Positions 13,608 through 40,914 of a stretch of DNA of 64,000 nucleotides are shown in pieces. Numbering within the stretch: the first letter of the stretch is position 1; the number at the start of each line of letters is the position of its first letter. Source of the stretch: Terriglobia bacterium (GTDB lineage: Bacteria > Acidobacteriota > Terriglobia > 20CM-2-55-15); assembly GCA_965198225.1 (NCBI GenBank), contig CBDAOY010000008.1:864001-928000 (forward strand). The letters are read 5' to 3'. The position numbers and the translations under genes are program-made. Below the pieces are notes generated by a model. The model was not told the DNA's origin. It ran no database searches and saw nothing but the letters and a program-made list of their open reading frames with translations.

Positions 13608-13680
13608 GGGCGGTTAGCTCAGATGGGAGAGCGCGGCGTTCGCAATGCCGAGGTCGAGGGTTCGATCCCCTTACCGTCCA
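13608..13680 (+). tRNA. tRNA-Ala (anticodon CGC)
   Basis: Acceptor GGGCGGT/ACCGTCC with G3:U70, anticodon stem CGGCG/TGCCG loop TTCGCAA, GTTCGA T-loop; CCA not encoded. Confidence 0.96.
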
Positions 13681-16633: not shown

Positions 16634-18217
16634 ATGAAGCTTAGTCCGTCCCGCGCGCTACTGTTCTGGGTTGTCCTGCTGACCGCCGCCGTTCTGTTCG
16701 GGGGCTTGTACGGCACTCAGGCTCAGGCGACTACCGGCGCCGAAGAAGATCTTGACGCATCTCTGAAGACTTTCACCGCTCTGTTGAGCATGGTTGAACG
16801 CAACCACGCTACCGCTGTCGACCCGGCAAAGGCGGTCTATGGGGCCATCGACGGCATGCTCCGGACGCTCGACCCGCACTCGAAGTTCTTCAGTCCCGAA
16901 GATTTCCGACGGCTGCGCGAGGACCAGCGCGGAAAGTATTACGGACTTGGGATTACCGTGACGAGCCGTTTCGGCAAGGTCACGGTGGTGTCGCCGCCGT
17001 TCCCGGGCGCTCCCGCCGAAAAAGTGGGCTTGCGCGTCGGCGACGTGCTGAGCCATGTCAACGGCGAACCAACCGAGGGAGTGGACCTCAACACGGTGGT
17101 CGGCCAGTTGAAGGGACCGAAGGGGACTCCGGTCAACGTCACCGTCACGCGCCCCGGTGTCGATGAGCCTTTCGAGGTCACCATCATCCGCGACGAGATC
17201 TCGAAGTTCACGATCAGCAACGCCTTCGAAATCCGTGAGGGTATCGGATACATCAAGATCGACAACTTCGCCGAGACAACCGGCGCAGAACTGCGCGAAG
17301 CTCTTCGGGAGTTGGACGGCGACAACCTCAAGGGACTGGTCCTGGACCTTCGGGGCAACCCCGGCGGCCTGTTGCAGGAGGCCATAGAGGTGTCTTCGAT
17401 GTTCCTCCAGAAGGGACAGCTCATCGTCGAGACCCGCGGCCGAACACGGGGATCAAATCGTCCGTATGCCTCGCAGCGCGTGAATAATGACAACCTCTAC
17501 CCGCTTGTTGTCGTGATCAACAAGCAGAGTGCCAGTGCTTCGGAGATCGTAGCCGGCGCCGTCCAGGATCACGACCGGGGTTTGATCGTCGGGGAGACCA
17601 GCTTCGGCAAGGGCCTCGTGCAATCAGTTTATCCTTTGAGCAAGCGCGCCGGTCTGGCGCTGACGACTCAGAAATGGCACACCCCGAGCGGCCGGTTGAT
17701 TCAGCGAGATTACTCCGCGATCTCTCAGTTCGACTATTACAACCAGCGAGACGGCGACTCGGAGCCCGAGCAGGCGGAGATCACGTACTCGGACCTGGGC
17801 CGGAAAGTTTACGGTGGGGGCGGTATCACGCCGGACGAGAACGTTCCGACGCCGGGGCTGAACGAGTTCGAAGATCTGCTGACCAAGCGCTTCGCTGTCT
17901 ACACCTTCGTACGGGACTTCCTGGCCGATAATCCCACCGTCACGTCGGAATTCGAAGTTTCAGATGAAATGCTGCAGGAGTTCGCAGGCCATCTGGTCGA
18001 ACGCGACATCGAGTTGAGCGAGAATGCTCTGGCCGACAACGCGGAATTCGTGAAGCGGATGATCAAGTATGAGGTGTTCTACAATCGTCTGGGCGTGTCC
18101 GACGCGGCTAAGGTACTGCTCAACGGCGACCGTCAAATTCTGCGGGCGCTGGAGCTTCTGCCCGAGGCCGGGGAACTCTCGATGCGGGCACGCAGCGCGA
18201 TGGCCCGGCGGCAGTAG
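16634..18217 (+). CDS. ctpA: Carboxy-terminal processing protease (S41A)
   Basis: LDPHS, PDZ domain, DLRGNPGG, SASASEIVAG, FGKGLVQ. Confidence 0.92.
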   Translation: MKLSPSRALLFWVVLLTAAVLFGGLYGTQAQATTGAEEDLDASLKTFTALLSMVERNHATAVDPAKAVYGAIDGMLRTLDPHSKFFSPEDFRRLREDQRGKYYGLGITVTSRFGKVTVVSPPFPGAPAEKVGLRVGDVLSHVNGEPTEGVDLNTVVGQLKGPKGTPVNVTVTRPGVDEPFEVTIIRDEISKFTISNAFEIREGIGYIKIDNFAETTGAELREALRELDGDNLKGLVLDLRGNPGGLLQEAIEVSSMFLQKGQLIVETRGRTRGSNRPYASQRVNNDNLYPLVVVINKQSASASEIVAGAVQDHDRGLIVGETSFGKGLVQSVYPLSKRAGLALTTQKWHTPSGRLIQRDYSAISQFDYYNQRDGDSEPEQAEITYSDLGRKVYGGGGITPDENVPTPGLNEFEDLLTKRFAVYTFVRDFLADNPTVTSEFEVSDEMLQEFAGHLVERDIELSENALADNAEFVKRMIKYEVFYNRLGVSDAAKVLLNGDRQILRALELLPEAGELSMRARSAMARRQ

Positions 18218-18247
18218 GCGAACGGGACCGTACACCCAGGTTATCGA

Positions 18248-18281
18248 AGACGGGCGGCCAATTCGGCCGCCCGTTTCTTTT
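18248..18281 (+). terminator. Rho-independent terminator (target of the class C intron)
   Basis: ACGGGCGGCC-AATTC-GGCCGCCCGT hairpin followed by TTCTTTT. Confidence 0.85.
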
Positions 18282-18282
18282 G

Positions 18283-20208
18283 GTGCGCCAGGCATGGCGC
18301 GCAGCGCCATGAATTGGCGCTGGATAACCGGGGAGCGAAAGCGAACCGGGAAGTGACTAGGAGGTGAGAGTCCTCTGGGGGCCTTGATGACAGGAACCCT
18401 TAGCCGATGTGGCAACTGCGTCCGAGCAATCGGGGGTGGGAAGGAAGCCATAGGCAAAACTCTGGCCCGAGGCACACGAACCGCATAAGAGGCAGGCGTC
18501 AGGTGGGCGAAGAGGCCAACAGATCGGAAGCCCAATGTCATCCGGACCGGGCGTTTGTAGATGCGGCGGGTAGATGGAGTGAAAGTCACGTGCCTTACCC
18601 TGGGAGATCCGTTGTCTTGCTGGGAACAGCTAGAGTCGTCGAGAGGCGGCGCGATGGGGCGGCGGAAGTCAGCCACGGTCATAGTAGCCCGGCGGAGCCG
18701 GGGTGAAGGACCACACATGGAGAAGAGACCGACACGGAGCGTTCGATGCGAAACGGAGACGCAGACAAGAGGGCTGAGAAGCCGGAACCGAACCGGAAGG
18801 ATAGCGGCGGAACCGTGACAGATACGGATGAGGGGCGTCAAACTCGCACGGCACGTCACGAGCAAGTCGGGATCGAGGAGGGAATGCTACTGGAGAAGGT
18901 GCTGGAACGGGAAAACGTTCTGGCCGCATACCGACGCGTCAAGGCCAATAGCGGGGCGGCGGGAATCGACGGGATGACCGTTGAGGACCTGATGCCGCAC
19001 TGTCAGATGCACTGGACGCGAGTCCGTCAAGAACTGCTCGACGAGACGTACCGCCCCCAACCGGTGAGGAAAGTCGATATTCTGAAACCGGACGGAGGGA
19101 TACGGACGCTGGGCATTCCGACCGTGATGGACCGGATGATTCAACAGGCTCTGCTTCAGGTTCTCCAACCCCTATGGGATCGGACGTTCTCGGAAGATAG
19201 CTACGGCTACCGACCGGGACGAAGCGCCCAAAAGGCGGTGGTGCGTGCCCGGGAACACATTCGAGCCGGACATCGCTGGGTGGTGGACCTGGACATCGAG
19301 AAGTTCTTTGATCGCGTCAACCATGACGTGCTGATGGCACGCGTGGCGCGACGAATCAAAGACAAACGGGTGCTTCGATTGATTCGGCGCTATCTACAGG
19401 CCGGACTGATGGAGGGCGGGCTGGTGTCGCCCCGGGCAGAAGGGACGCCGCAAGGCGGCCCCCTCTCGCCTCTGCTGTCGAACCTGTTGCTGGATGAACT
19501 GGATCGGGAGTTGGGGAAACGTGGGCACCGCTTCGTTCGTTATGCCGACGATGTGAATGTGTACATTCGCTCCGAGGCAGCGGGTCAGCGGGTCATGGCA
19601 TCGCTGGAATGTTTTCTGGACAGGAGACTCCGGCTGAAGGTGAACCGGGCCAAAAGCGCCGTGGCGCGGCCGTGGAAGCGAAAGTTCCTCGGGTACAGTT
19701 TCACGGCGCATCGCGAGGCCAAACTGAAGGTTTCGGATTCGTCGTTAAAACGACTGAAAATGAGACTTCGGGAGATCACGCGAGCCGGGCGAGGCCGAAG
19801 CCTCGCTCGCACGATCGGAACACTCATTCCCATCATTCGGGGTTGGGTGGCTTACTATCGCTTGGCGGAGGTTCGAGGCAGCTTCGAGCGACTGGATCAG
19901 TGGTTGCGCCGCCGGCTGCGGTCGATCTTGTGGCAGCAGTGGAAGCGGAACCGAACACGATTCCGGGAACTCACTCGACGCGGTATTGCGACCGCTCGGG
20001 CTCGGACCTCGGTTTCCAACGGGCGCGGGCCTTGGTGGAATGCGGGCGCCAGCCATATGAATCAGGCTGTCCCCGCCTCTGCCTTCCGTCGCCTGGGTTT
20101 GCAATCCTTCTCCGAGGTGCATTCCCGACTTCAATCTTTATGAACCGCCGTATACGGAACCGTACGTACGGTGGTGTGGGAGGCGGGCGTTAAGCCCGCC
20201 TACCCGAT
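18283..20208 (+). mobile_element. Group II intron, class C (IIC), full length
   Basis: 5' GTGCGCC directly after terminator; short DV with CGC triad (AACCGCCGTATACGGAACCGTACGTACGGTGGT); DVI ending CCTACCCGAT; EBS1 CAAAA (18455-18459) pairs with TTTTG (18278-18282). Confidence 0.93.
18884..20143 (+). CDS. ltrA: Group II intron reverse transcriptase/maturase (no endonuclease domain)
   Basis: RTLGIPT, SYGYRPGR, DIEKFFD, GTPQGGPLSPLL, RYADD, FLGY, RGWVAYY; GAGGAGG RBS before 18884 (alternative start 18746). Confidence 0.95.
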   Translation: MLLEKVLERENVLAAYRRVKANSGAAGIDGMTVEDLMPHCQMHWTRVRQELLDETYRPQPVRKVDILKPDGGIRTLGIPTVMDRMIQQALLQVLQPLWDRTFSEDSYGYRPGRSAQKAVVRAREHIRAGHRWVVDLDIEKFFDRVNHDVLMARVARRIKDKRVLRLIRRYLQAGLMEGGLVSPRAEGTPQGGPLSPLLSNLLLDELDRELGKRGHRFVRYADDVNVYIRSEAAGQRVMASLECFLDRRLRLKVNRAKSAVARPWKRKFLGYSFTAHREAKLKVSDSSLKRLKMRLREITRAGRGRSLARTIGTLIPIIRGWVAYYRLAEVRGSFERLDQWLRRRLRSILWQQWKRNRTRFRELTRRGIATARARTSVSNGRGPWWNAGASHMNQAVPASAFRRLGLQSFSEVHSRLQSL

Positions 20209-37803: not shown

Positions 37804-37976
37804 ACCTCTCGCACTTCGAGGCGCTGTTCATCTTTGCGTTGATCGTCTCGGTTGTCTTCGCTCTGATCAACAAGACGACTCCGATCGAGCAGCTCAAATA
37901 CGGGGCGCTGGTATTCCTTTCCTTCGTCGGTGTCGGTTTCTTCGTCGGCTGGTTTATGTTTCCCTTTCCATTCTGA
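37800..37976 (+). CDS. Small membrane protein
   Basis: ATGA overlap with upstream gene; two TM helices; SHFEA...WFMFPFP. Confidence 0.65.
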   Translation: MNLSHFEALFIFALIVSVVFALINKTTPIEQLKYGALVFLSFVGVGFFVGWFMFPFPF

Positions 37977-38216
37977 GCGGTGGTTCGATGAGCAAGTGTT
38001 TACTGTCATACACCGCCCTGTACGGGTTAGATGAATCGGTGGGTCCTGCAGAAGTCCGCGCCGCGTCAATTCCGATCAACGCTAGGGATTTATTCGGGAC
38101 TTGAGAATCATTTTCGAGGCTGTTCAGGTAAAGAAACTCGCGTATCGCGGTAGGAATGCCAGTCTCCCGGCACCACCCGCGCAGATCCGGACGTGCGGAA
38201 TTCCCGCATCCGGCTC

Positions 38217-38386
38217 CTACCTCGGATGGTTGGCGGCAAAGCGGCGATCCGGATAAGGATGTAAGACACGGGGTTCAGGAATCCAGCGGTCTGAGATCCG
38301 GAGCATCCGAGTCCACGTCACGTGCCCGCGCTGGCTACGACGATACAAGTTCAATCGCTCCGCACAGCGCTCAGTCCCTGAGACAC
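38217..38386 (-). pseudogene. RT/maturase remnant of intron A
   Basis: N-terminal VSQGLSAVR followed directly by C-terminal RRSQRGHVTWTRMLRISDRWIPEPRVLHPYP..HPR; whole RT core deleted. Confidence 0.75.
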
Positions 38387-38507
38387 GAATATCTCCTGCT
38401 CTGTGTCGGGCTCGTGTGAGACCCGAGCGATGTTCTCCTTGGTCCGCGTCCTTCCCTCCCCAATCTCCGCCGAGTACGGGTCCTCTTTGTTCGGCTGGTT
38501 CACAGGT

Positions 38508-39484
38508 GTAGAGTCGAAAGTGGTCGGGCCGCAATCGGCCCTTCCACCGTCCGCTCAATCAAACGGCTCGTGCGGTTTTCCCGCAAGCCGCTTTCCTCAG
38601 TTGCTCCTCGTTCGGAATTCGCTGTGTGACCGGGGGCGGCAGGTGGCGGCTTCGTTCGTACCGCGTTTGGGTCTTTCGCTAAGGGAACTATCCAAGTTCA
38701 CGATATCTCCGCGTTTCCCATCGCTCGCACATTCACGACTGAGTACGGGGACTTCCCCCTCCAACGGGCCTTTTGGACCCGCCAGCGCCGCTGCTCGAAG
38801 CAACGATCCGAGACCTTATGTTTGCCGTCTCGTTCCTGAGTACTATTCCCCGATCCGATTCCTGAGCACCGCGTCGGCCGGAATTTCGCTCTCGCTTATA
38901 TCCGCACCTACCGCGCCAGGGCTCTAGGTCGATGTTTGTCTTCTCGGTTGCCCGCCCTTTCGTCTGCACCTACCGCGCAGGGCTCTAGGTCGATGTTTGT
39001 CTTCTCGGTTGCCCGCCCTTTCGTCTGCGGGTGCCACATCATCTCGACCTTACCTTCCGCCCGGACGATACCAGGCCTCCCTGGGTCACTCGCGTCTCTT
39101 CTCCACCGTGTCGCCCGCACACACCTTGGTGCGATGGGGTGGAACCAAATGCGCCTTCGCCCCCATAGTGCGGGCTCGACCATTCCCCATCTTTGGCCGA
39201 CCGGTTCATCCTCGGGATCGCTCCCTTCGATTACGACCCGGTGGTTCTCCTCATGCCCTTCAGACCCCACCTCGCGGTGGGCGCCCTGCCCTCCAAAGTT
39301 TCCGTAGGTGGCTCCAGCTCTGCCTTGTCCGTTTCCGGCTTTCGCCTTCGTGCCCGTTTAGGCATCTGCCATACCTGCCTACACTCCGGCCAGTGAGGCA
39401 TTACCCCCACTTGTTGGATATCGACCCGTGGCCTCGGGCCGAGCGGGACTTTAACCCGCCGGAAACGCGTGCTGCCAGGCACGC
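38508..39484 (-). mobile_element. Group II intron B, ORF-less, nested in intron A
   Basis: 5' GCGTGCCTGGCAGC; DV AAGCGGCTTGCGGGAAAACCGCACGAGCCGTTT; ends CGACTCTAC; EBS1 ACTATG (39164-39169) complementary to 5' exon CATAGT; removing it restores CATAGT|ACCTGTGAA. Confidence 0.82.
38904..39026. repeat. Tandem duplication of about 62 bp inside intron B
   Basis: 38904-38965 and 38966-39026 are identical except for one C indel. Confidence 0.9.
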
Positions 39485-40095
39485 ACTATGACGCGGTCTG
39501 ATCCCTCCAGAGCGTTCATGCCCGCATTGTGGCCTTGGCCTTTTCGGGCCGGCCTCGGTTTCGACTTCACCGAGGCACTTCGGAGGTCTCCCGGTTCTCG
39601 TGTATGTTGTTTCTCAGCGTGCGCGGGGTCTTAGACTACGCAGGACCGACAAGCCACTTGCGTTTAACGCAGCCCATCGTGTTGCCTTCCGCGACCGTAA
39701 AAGCGTCGGCATCCTGATCTCGTACCCTTTTCGAAGCTCAATAGCCCAGCCCACTGATACCTCTGTCTACGCTTCAAGCGCCACCTCACGATGACAGCCC
39801 GCAAGACTCGAGGCCAGGATGGATTCGCTATCCCCTTTCCTGTACGACTCTTTCATTCGCGACAACATACCGGTTTATCCTGGCGTACTACGGCACCGGC
39901 ACCGTTCCTTCAGTTCTTCAAACCAGCCGTGCCCTAGTTTCGCAAGACTCGGCCGAGCGCTTCAATCTCAGCGAGGCCCCGCATCGCTGCCAGCGTTACC
40001 TTCGCCCTTGAATGCAGCAGAAATATTCCGTCCCTTTGCCATTCGCGTAAGGTCTGCTCATCTGTGCGGAGACCATTTGAGAATGCCGTCTGAAT

Positions 40096-40914
40096 CTACC
40101 TCCGACTTTTGGAAATCGCTGTAGAAGTCGGCGAACGCAACTCCCGAACGATCCCGAACAGACTCAGGATCCTCAAGACGTAGTACGTTATGTCAATCTC
40201 CCACCATCGCAAACCGTGCCGGGCACTATACATAAACCGGTGGTGATTGTTATGCCAGCCGTCTCCCAGTGTGATCAGCGCGACGAAGCGATTGTTCCGA
40301 CTTTGGTCTCCCGTTTCAAACGGCCTGGATCCCCAGACATGCGCGAGGGAATTAATTGAAAACGTGGAGTGCCACAGCACAACAGTCGAAACAACAAATC
40401 CCCAGAGGAAAACGGGATAGCCTCCCGCCGCAAACACGGCAGCACCAAACAAGAGAGCAGGGACACTGTGGTATCTGTTCAAGAGCCTGAGTTCCGGAAA
40501 CTTTTCGAAATCCTGCATGATGCGGCTGTCATATCCACTGGACTCACCGGAAAGAAGCCATCCGATATGCGACCACCAAAGGCTACCGCGTACTGGAGAA
40601 TGGATATCTTCCTCGGAATCCGAGTAGCGATGGTGCACGCGATGATGTGCCGCCCACCACAACACGCCCCTTTGCCCGCCGGTCTGGGCGAGGAAGGCTA
40701 AAACAAACTGAGAAAGGCGATTGAGCCTGAAGGCACGATGGCTGAAGTACCGATGATAACCGGCCGTGATTGCGAACATTCGAATGCCATAGCTGATGGC
40801 GAACCAGCCAAGGTAAGACCACTTGAACGGCGTCCACAACAAAAGCAGGCACGCGGCATGCATCGGGACAAAGGAAACAATTGCATCGAAATGAAATCGT
40901 CTAACTCGCGTCAT
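40096..40914 (-). CDS. Acyl-CoA/acyl-lipid delta-9 type fatty acid desaturase
   Basis: His boxes HRYFSH, HRVHH, WHNNHH; INSLAH; lower GC than flanks. Confidence 0.9.
   Translation of the reverse strand: MTRVRRFHFDAIVSFVPMHAACLLLLWTPFKWSYLGWFAISYGIRMFAITAGYHRYFSHRAFRLNRLSQFVLAFLAQTGGQRGVLWWAAHHRVHHRYSDSEEDIHSPVRGSLWWSHIGWLLSGESSGYDSRIMQDFEKFPELRLLNRYHSVPALLFGAAVFAAGGYPVFLWGFVVSTVVLWHSTFSINSLAHVWGSRPFETGDQSRNNRFVALITLGDGWHNNHHRFMYSARHGLRWWEIDITYYVLRILSLFGIVRELRSPTSTAISKSRR

Follow-up and report, generated by a model that had tools for sequence, protein, structure and literature searches.

An open reading frame-less group II intron nested in domain III of another group II intron in a Terriglobia genome

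The 64,000-nt stretch of DNA analysed here (the window, to which all unprefixed coordinates refer) comes from a Terriglobia bacterium (GenBank assembly GCA_965198225.1) and carries, on its minus strand, one group II intron inside another. The outer intron, A, spans positions 38144-39888 and is split by the inner intron, B, which lacks an open reading frame (ORF) and occupies 977 nt at 38508-39484. Direct reading of the minus strand placed the ends of A at 39888 (5' GTACG) and 38144 (3' CCTACCGCGAT) and those of B at 39484 (5' GCGTG) and 38508 (3' GACTCTAC), the latter being common to the copies of B in the genome. The locus is intergenic and follows a desaturase-like same-strand ORF at a distance of 208 nt, and as no terminator-like site was found between them (in a promoter and terminator scan that performed at chance level) read-through transcription is possible. 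Because the element lies between genes, host gene expression should be independent of its splicing. Below, G000 is the genome that carries the window, other numbers with the prefix G are other genomes, and those with the prefix L are individual loci.

The 5' segment of A (39485-39888), delimited using the Rfam model RF02005 and the alignment of relatives, contains the 5' end, domains I and II (DI and DII) and the 5' strand of domain III (DIII). The 3' segment (38144-38507) contains the rest of DIII, domain IV (DIV) with remnants of an ORF, and domains V and VI (DV and DVI). In an Rfam search, the full length of the RF02005 domain I model (1-225) was matched at 39626-39851(-) with 166.3 bits, and the DV/DVI model RF00029 was matched at 38144-38218(-) with 40.2 bits, where the gathering score is 40. 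DV retains the AGC triad and DVI a bulged A near the 3' end, while the unusual 3' strand of DV, GGAUC, is common to the relatives of A that encode a reverse transcriptase (RT). Exon-binding site 1 (EBS1) of A, TACGGT at 39694-39699, was located from its position in the RF02005 alignment, in a stem-loop immediately 5' of GGAAGGCAACA. In RNA form (UACGGU) it pairs with the 5' exon GCCGUA (39889-39894), with one G-U pair. The same loop was judged by eye to be complementary to the 5' exon in all three relatives of A compared, namely L047 (GGACAG/CUGUCC), L048 (UUGUAA/UUACGA) and L050 (AGGCUG/CAGCCU).

Relatives of the A 5' segment were found in 20 of the 60 related genomes searched, G000 included. 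L047, L048 and L050 align with it at 73-75% identity over positions 1-404 (1-403 in L048), and all three run uninterrupted from sequence of the 5' segment into sequence of the 3' segment. Across the site of B they read ...GGCATAGTACC..., i.e. ...GGCATAG(A)TACCgATGAA..., and the window reads CATAGT, then B, then ACCTGTGAA. B is a true insertion, because relatives of A read through the site and removal of B restores the conserved sequence, and its boundaries cannot be shifted, as the bases flanking the two junctions differ. Removal of the inner intron leaves a contiguous, conserved outer intron, as expected of a twintron.

The insertion site is in DIII. The consensus of RF01998, a DIII-containing model that is matched by a plus-strand intron elsewhere in the window, was used for the layout of this domain and consists of a 3-bp helix (GcC), the loop AUAGUA, a hairpin, the loop GAAG and the helix strand GgC. 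As RF01998 gave no match to the A-type relatives, the DIII of A was placed using our own RNAalifold consensus of six A-type sequences, from which inner introns had first been removed. In this consensus the basal helix is 7 bp long, reads CCGCGUC/GACGCGG in A and shows compensatory changes in L047 (CUGCGGC/GCCGCAG), L048 (CAGCGGC/GCCGCUG) and the host intron at L095 (CAUCGGC/GCCGGUG). Unpaired AUAGUA directly follows the basal helix, GAAG lies on the return strand, and B is inserted between the U and A of AUAGU↓A (the arrow marks the insertion point) in the DIII internal loop of A. In the window, the 5' strand of the helix, CCGCGTC, lies at 39490-39496 and is followed by the loop ATAGT, and the 3' strand, GACGCGG, lies at 38444-38450. 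The two strands pair 7/7 across B, and the two halves of A therefore belong together.

EBS1 of B, ACTATG at 39164-39169, is in a loop reading GCACTATGG (RNA GCACUAUGG) that is followed by GAAGGC, the same layout as in the model for A. As ACUAUG it pairs 6/6 with CAUAGU, the corresponding intron-binding site (IBS1, CATAGT at 39485-39490). A candidate EBS2 (GUCUGA, against UCAGAC in the host J2/3) was rejected, as it is a conserved RF02001 DI motif that shows no covariation with the hosts. The stretch 38508-38595 holds DV, which has the AGC triad, and DVI, whose bulged A is 7 nt from the 3' end, and it matched RF00029 with 36.4 bits (E 5.9e-5 in a 2.2-kb search); for DI there was a weak match to RF02001 at 39174-39281(-), with 24.6 bits. 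At the Rfam gathering thresholds (40 for DV and 32 for DI) the B family goes undetected, and DV of the B relatives L095, L097 and L100 scored above gathering (41.4, 40.3 and 40.2 bits, respectively). The window copy is longer than the canonical 904-909 nt owing to a private tandem duplication of 61-62 nt in the DII region (38904-39028; period 61, 2.0 copies and 98% matches in Tandem Repeats Finder) and a 7-nt insertion. The duplication was not found in other B copies, and contigs from RNA sequencing runs skip 62 nt at this position. B also contains, at 38841-38847, its own DIII motif AATAGT↓A, an unoccupied B homing site that is occupied in four other B copies.

An earlier reading of this DNA, made from the letters alone (the sequence-only reading), had described B as splitting A within DIII, and its coordinates, ends, EBS1 positions, EBS1-IBS1 pairings and AGC triads agree with those given above.

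Neither intron has an RT domain, as the same reading had stated; none of the nine ORFs tested at the locus (68-174 aa, both strands) had a Pfam match at E<=0.01. Of the RT/maturase ordinarily encoded in DIV, A retains only remnants. A Shine-Dalgarno-like AAGGAG and approximately 25 N-terminal codons, at 38354-38430, align with L047, L048 and L050, and the start region of these relatives, AAGGAGAACATC-ATG, matches that of A, where the ATG has been lost. Approximately 40 C-terminal codons, at 38220-38342 and ending ...RWIPEPRVLHPYPDRRFAANHPR before the stop codon, match the RT C-termini of L047 and L048 (...RWVPVPRLQHPYPEQRFAKLHPR, then stop). The 41 C-terminal codons counted previously are thus close to the mark, but the N-terminal remnant was put at nine codons and is longer. 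An unbroken RT frame of about 480 codons is present in L047 and L048, and in L050 the RT is in pieces. Because both the start region and the C-terminus match the RTs of relatives, A is best described as an ORF-deleted derivative that has lost approximately 1.2 kb of its RT gene. When RT remnants in A were sought with the RTs of its own genome nothing was found below E 0.003, and the remnants are clear only against the RTs of relatives from other genomes. No cognate RT for A was found in G000, where the RT closest to the lost one is 42% identical and A itself is single-copy.

B belongs to a family. BLAST searches of G000 found 20 5' ends and 21 3' ends, corresponding to about 20 copies that are 97-99% identical, and the window copy is 98.5% identical to a canonical one. 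Two copies of a full-length parent, B-RT, are present at C5:501714-503866 and C6:343788-345941 (2153 and 2154 nt), with 99.3% identity between them and 93-94% identity to B over the RNA that they have in common with it. Each has an unbroken 479-codon frame, which spans C5:501825-503261 in the first copy, with RVT_1 (2.8e-33) and GIIM (1.5e-19) domains, and the best solved-structure match of the protein is a group II RT (5.1e-65). Alignment with B-RT indicates that B is a deletion derivative of it, minus the ORF of approximately 1.25 kb, with the deletion junction (...CACACAGCGA / ATTCCGAA / CGAGGAGCAAC...) at 38611-38619. A probable GTG start, GGAG before it and about 22 leader codons of the parent ORF are retained. 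B had been said to carry no RT trace, which is correct for RT motifs but overlooks this leader, and the description of the pair as protein-free is true of the locus but not of a genome that holds two B-RT copies. A closely related intron in the same genome that encodes an intron-encoded protein (IEP), as found here for B, is characteristic of the class of ORF-less introns that includes TeI3, considered below. Overall, G000 contains 32 RF00029 matches and 31 GIIM matches.

The insertion sites of B within G000 were compared. At 18 of the 20 5' junctions B follows RTAGT (15 ATAGT and three GTAGT), the others being GTAAT and ATGGC, and the base after the 3' end is A in 21 of 21 (18 AC, two AG and one AA). 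Using a limit of <=250 nt downstream of a same-strand Rfam DI match, 11 of the 20 5' junctions were found 92-243 nt from such a match (eight RF02005 and three RF02001). Another four are inside the DIII of B itself (GGGGAATAGT↓ACTCAGG), forming B-in-B nests. At least 15 of the 20 are therefore in the DIII of group II introns, including B, while the contexts of the other five are unclassified. As RTAGTA occurs 1672 times in the genome, the occupied sites are strongly concentrated in introns. The IBS2 region varies between the hosts. In one host family (RF02005, 137 bits) the RT is present in six copies, and in every one of them the 3' end of B lies 73 nt ahead of the RT frame; at two of these six loci the 5' and 3' flanks come from different hosts, which suggests recombination between B copies. 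A family of about 20 copies with a fixed homing site in the DIII of other introns goes beyond what the sequence-only reading had described.

At C5:889958 and C4:150750 the host is chimeric, with a 5' flank of B reading ...GGGGCGGAATGGCCCGTAGT and a 3' flank reading ACTCCGAGGTCGGGAGAGCC... that belong to different intron types, as expected from recombination between B copies. Multi-intron nests were seen at C5:810500-819000 (L057) in G000, with similar ones on C4, C5 and C6. In these, no more than approximately 20 nt separate the DV of an RT-encoding intron from the DI of a following intron of RF02005 type. The latter hosts B (or B in B) in its DIII, upstream of its own RT and DV, and another intron comes next.

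The second group II intron of the window, at approximately 18200-20208 (+), encodes an RT. It is made up of an RF02001 match at 18420-18594, the RF01998 match at 18630-18711, a 478-codon RT at 18707-20140 and an RF00029 match at 20143-20208, and its family accounts for eight RF02001 matches of identical score (114.9 bits) in G000. Its DIII contains an unoccupied B site, GGTCATAGT↓AGCCC, between 18685 and 18686, and one of the nine copies of this site in the family is occupied; the family carries B at C7:81384. The window also includes a tRNA gene (RF00005, 59.3 bits) at 13608-13680 (+).

The 5' exon of A, at 39889-39926, is a degenerate version of a repeated motif (CTGGTTTGAAGAACTGAAGGAACGGGTGCCGGTGCC...), for which blastn-short gave 24 further matches in G000 and many short matches in the same-genus genomes G002 and G003. 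Intact copies of the motif read ...NWFEELKERVPVP and then a stop, and resemble a conserved C-terminal end encoded by a multi-copy gene family. This motif appears to be a homing target of A-type introns, and in G002 a partial A 5' end adjoins a copy of it.

Outside G000, B was found at 96-99% identity in G020, G024 and G027, which represent two other genera of the same family, but not in the three same-genus genomes searched (G001-G003), a distribution suggesting that B has recently spread horizontally. A B-RT-like protein at E<=1e-100 was present in two of the 401 genomes of a phylum-wide sample, G000 included. In public records, relatives of the B-RT protein were found in a Terriglobia metagenome-assembled genome (MAG; 90% identity), in delta-proteobacterial and Desulfobacterales MAGs (77%) and, at 53-58%, in MAGs labelled Gammaproteobacteria, Nitrospinota, Neomarinimicrobiota and Ignavibacteriaceae, a Desulforhopalus isolate and Sedimenticola isolates. 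Members of the B lineage follow TAGT at all 17 loci with readable upstream sequence, and also at L100, and EBS1 ACTAT (ACUAU) is invariant in the 13 aligned members, which come from several phyla. The RNAalifold consensus of these 13 sequences predicted 101 pairs in DI, 33 of them with compensatory changes, and this covariation supports the conserved DI fold of B. DII-DIII could not be aligned over the whole lineage, and in a seven-sequence subgroup only five of 67 DII-DIII pairs covaried.

When the surroundings of 20 B-relative loci were searched at the Rfam gathering threshold, the DI of a host intron was found upstream on the same strand in 13 (types RF02005, RF02001 and RF01999), and a further DV was found downstream of the inner intron in nine. 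In G027, no group II match was found by Rfam near four B-RT loci. All three of the G027 B-RT copies examined lie within or border open frames (660, 329 and 198 codons long), the junctions falling 407, 15 and 23 codons into the frame, respectively, and the B lineage is thus not confined to introns.

The anatomy of the locus, the insertion and its site, the copy family and the parent element are all directly observed, and we take the locus to be two nested, non-autonomous group II retroelements, in which B, an ORF-deleted B-RT, is inserted at AUAGU↓A in the DIII of A (probability approximately 85%). A, of RF02005 type, would have homed via EBS1-IBS1 pairing into a fragment of the multi-copy motif and afterwards lost approximately 1.2 kb of its RT gene. 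A B-RT ribonucleoprotein, or B RNA with B-RT protein made elsewhere, would reverse-splice at (Y)RUAGU↓A via EBS1 pairing, a target sequence that the DIII of most group II classes would offer. In A, it would have reverse-spliced into the DNA at the conserved 5' strand of the DIII internal loop, which matches EBS1 ACUAUG. As B retains DIVa, the start region, DV and DVI, it is probably spliced and mobilized in trans by the B-RT protein; self-splicing or a maturase borrowed in trans had both been proposed, and the presence of B-RT in the same genome favours the second. It is reasonable to infer that B must leave before the DIII of A can form properly, because the loop and the flanking helix are split by 0.9 kb. 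A may be a poorly active or inactive relic, given its 5' end and the lack of a cognate RT in its own genome.

Several observations weigh against this account. A begins GUACG, one substitution away from the group II 5' end GUGYG, where L047, L048 and L050 have GUGCG, and the nearest RT in G000 to the one A has lost is only 42% identical. B begins GCGUG in every copy of G000 and of the sister Terriglobia genome, whereas relatives from other phyla begin GUGYG (GUGUG or GUGCG), its DV falls under the gathering score, and the window copy has a duplication and an insertion not seen in other copies. Trans action of the B-RT protein is indicated indirectly, by copy number and the 97-99% identity among copies. 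Finally, contigs of four runs, namely X1 (kind unspecified) and the metatranscriptomes X9, X12 and X13, were aligned to positions 37900-40100. No spliced joint (38507/39485 or 38143/39889) was found in the contigs of the three RNA runs, though at their low depth this is not evidence of absence. The RNA-run contigs included canonical B in other host introns and exact, low-depth pieces of the A 5' segment. One contig ends exactly at the first base of A (39888), which is a hint only, as contigs cannot show RNA ends.

Group II introns inside other group II introns have been described. In the known cases reviewed here, the inner intron either targets ORF sequence in DIV that is specific to a lineage or is situated in domain I. 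The closest to B is TeI3 inside TeI4 in Thermosynechococcus elongatus (Mohr, Ghanem and Lambowitz 2010, PMC2882425), where the inner intron is likewise ORF-less and multi-copy, arose by deletion of the ORF from a relative that encodes an IEP in that genome, and occupies one conserved site in another group II intron. TeI3 was shown in T. elongatus to be spliced and mobilized in trans by the IEP of its relative. The claim that twintrons and ORF-less introns were each known separately is therefore incorrect. TeI3 differs in that its site is between the first two ATGs of the outer ORF, in DIV, and the outer intron keeps that ORF, whereas here the site is the DIII internal loop, the outer intron is ORF-less, the hosts include several Rfam DI types, and B nests in B. 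At L085, in a Desulfobacterales MAG, the B-lineage intron encodes an RT and the host DV is 145 nt past the inner 3' end; with DV so close, the outer intron is ORF-less and the inner one ORF-bearing, the reverse of the T. elongatus arrangement.

In Methanosarcina acetivorans (Dai and Zimmerly 2003, as reported in PMC4424553) there is also repeated site-specific homing into other group II introns, with nests of up to five introns, no coding exons, and deletions via recombination between copies; judging by the title of the original paper, the homing there is into related intron ORFs rather than into a ribozyme domain across classes. Tery_4732 of Trichodesmium erythraeum (PMC4649490) is a bacterial group II twintron for which sequential splicing, inner intron first, was shown in vivo, but both its introns encode IEPs, the inner one lies within domain I and the twintron interrupts a conserved protein gene. 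In Euglena chloroplast twintrons (PMC4424553, PMC4476101) the inner intron often has to be excised before the outer one can fold, but those are degenerate organellar introns of group II/III that interrupt essential genes; a DIV site for an inner intron has also been described (PMC4476101). P.li.LSU.I2 (bioRxiv 10.1101/2024.08.31.610620) shows that protein is in principle dispensable for the action of an ORF-less group II RNA, but it is organellar and was tested in vitro. We did not find homing into domain III described in the literature, although an earlier description may exist.

The distribution of B also allows a broader, tentative reading, to which we give slightly less than an even chance. 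B and its RT-encoding kin would be a lineage specialized as parasites of group II introns, in which ACUAU reads the AUAGU↓A of DIII, with hosts in several phyla that include at least three Rfam DI types and the lineage itself. Each insertion would split the DIII of its host, so that activity of the host intron would be gated by splicing of the inner one. The concentration in DIII may instead reflect survival rather than targeting, if B enters any (Y)RUAGU↓A and only harmless copies persist, and this is a real possibility that we put somewhat short of even. The abundance of RTAGTA in the genome, the differences in the IBS2 region between hosts and the G027 copies in or at the edge of open frames, with no group II match near the four loci, are all compatible with survival. 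However, EBS1 does not vary among the 13 lineage members aligned, which come from several phyla, a host DI of one of three Rfam types is just upstream at 13 of 20 loci of relatives, and one host-intron family is occupied in all six of its RT-bearing copies.

At the locus itself, the nested pair could be an inert fossil, a dead scar in which neither intron splices and which persists only because it is intergenic. The position 208 nt after the desaturase-like ORF, the single-copy status of A, the absence of a cognate RT (42% at best), the change of G3 to A at the 5' end of A, the private 62-nt duplication in B and the lack of a spliced joint in the contigs would all fit a fossil. This is nevertheless unlikely, as the DI of A scores 166 bits against 170-176 bits in RT-encoding relatives, its DIII basal helix pairs perfectly across B, and B has intact EBS1, DV and DVI and remains 98.5% identical to a canonical copy.

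A self-sufficient, two-tier ribozyme in which both introns splice without a maturase is very improbable. Both introns do retain DI, together with a DV that has the AGC triad and a DVI that has a bulged A, neither encodes a protein, and protein-independent group II reactions are reported for one organellar intron (bioRxiv 10.1101/2024.08.31.610620). However, there are 31 GIIM matches in the genome, including the parent RT of B, and bacterial ORF-less introns are nearly always found beside related IEP-encoding introns, with possible trans action, according to a review (PMC4424553). A repeat-induced misjoin that placed B between unrelated intron halves is highly improbable. B is a repeat of approximately 0.9 kb with about 20 copies, and short-read contigs break at its edges, with none in the aligned runs bridging the A/B junctions. 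However, in relatives both halves of A form a single intron, the DIII strands of the two halves pair 7/7, the unique flanks on both sides have equal depth (approximately 11-12) in run X1, and insertion of B in a host DIII is seen again at more than 10 loci as well as in other genomes.

The locus is a genuine twintron and a variant of a known arrangement, and on its own it is ordinary, as twintrons and ORF-less introns served in trans are already textbook variants. The part worth following is the DIII homing habit of the B lineage, in which the homing site is a structural motif of the ribozyme core that is common to different intron classes. The B family is below the Rfam gathering thresholds and nested host introns are missed by pipelines that use the RT-to-DV distance (PMC8919778), and such elements are therefore probably under-counted. 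If the specificity is true, it would explain how a non-autonomous element of 0.9 kb reached about 20 copies, as well as the multi-intron nests and the recombinant host introns. It would also provide a natural system in which the splicing of one ribozyme controls the folding of another.

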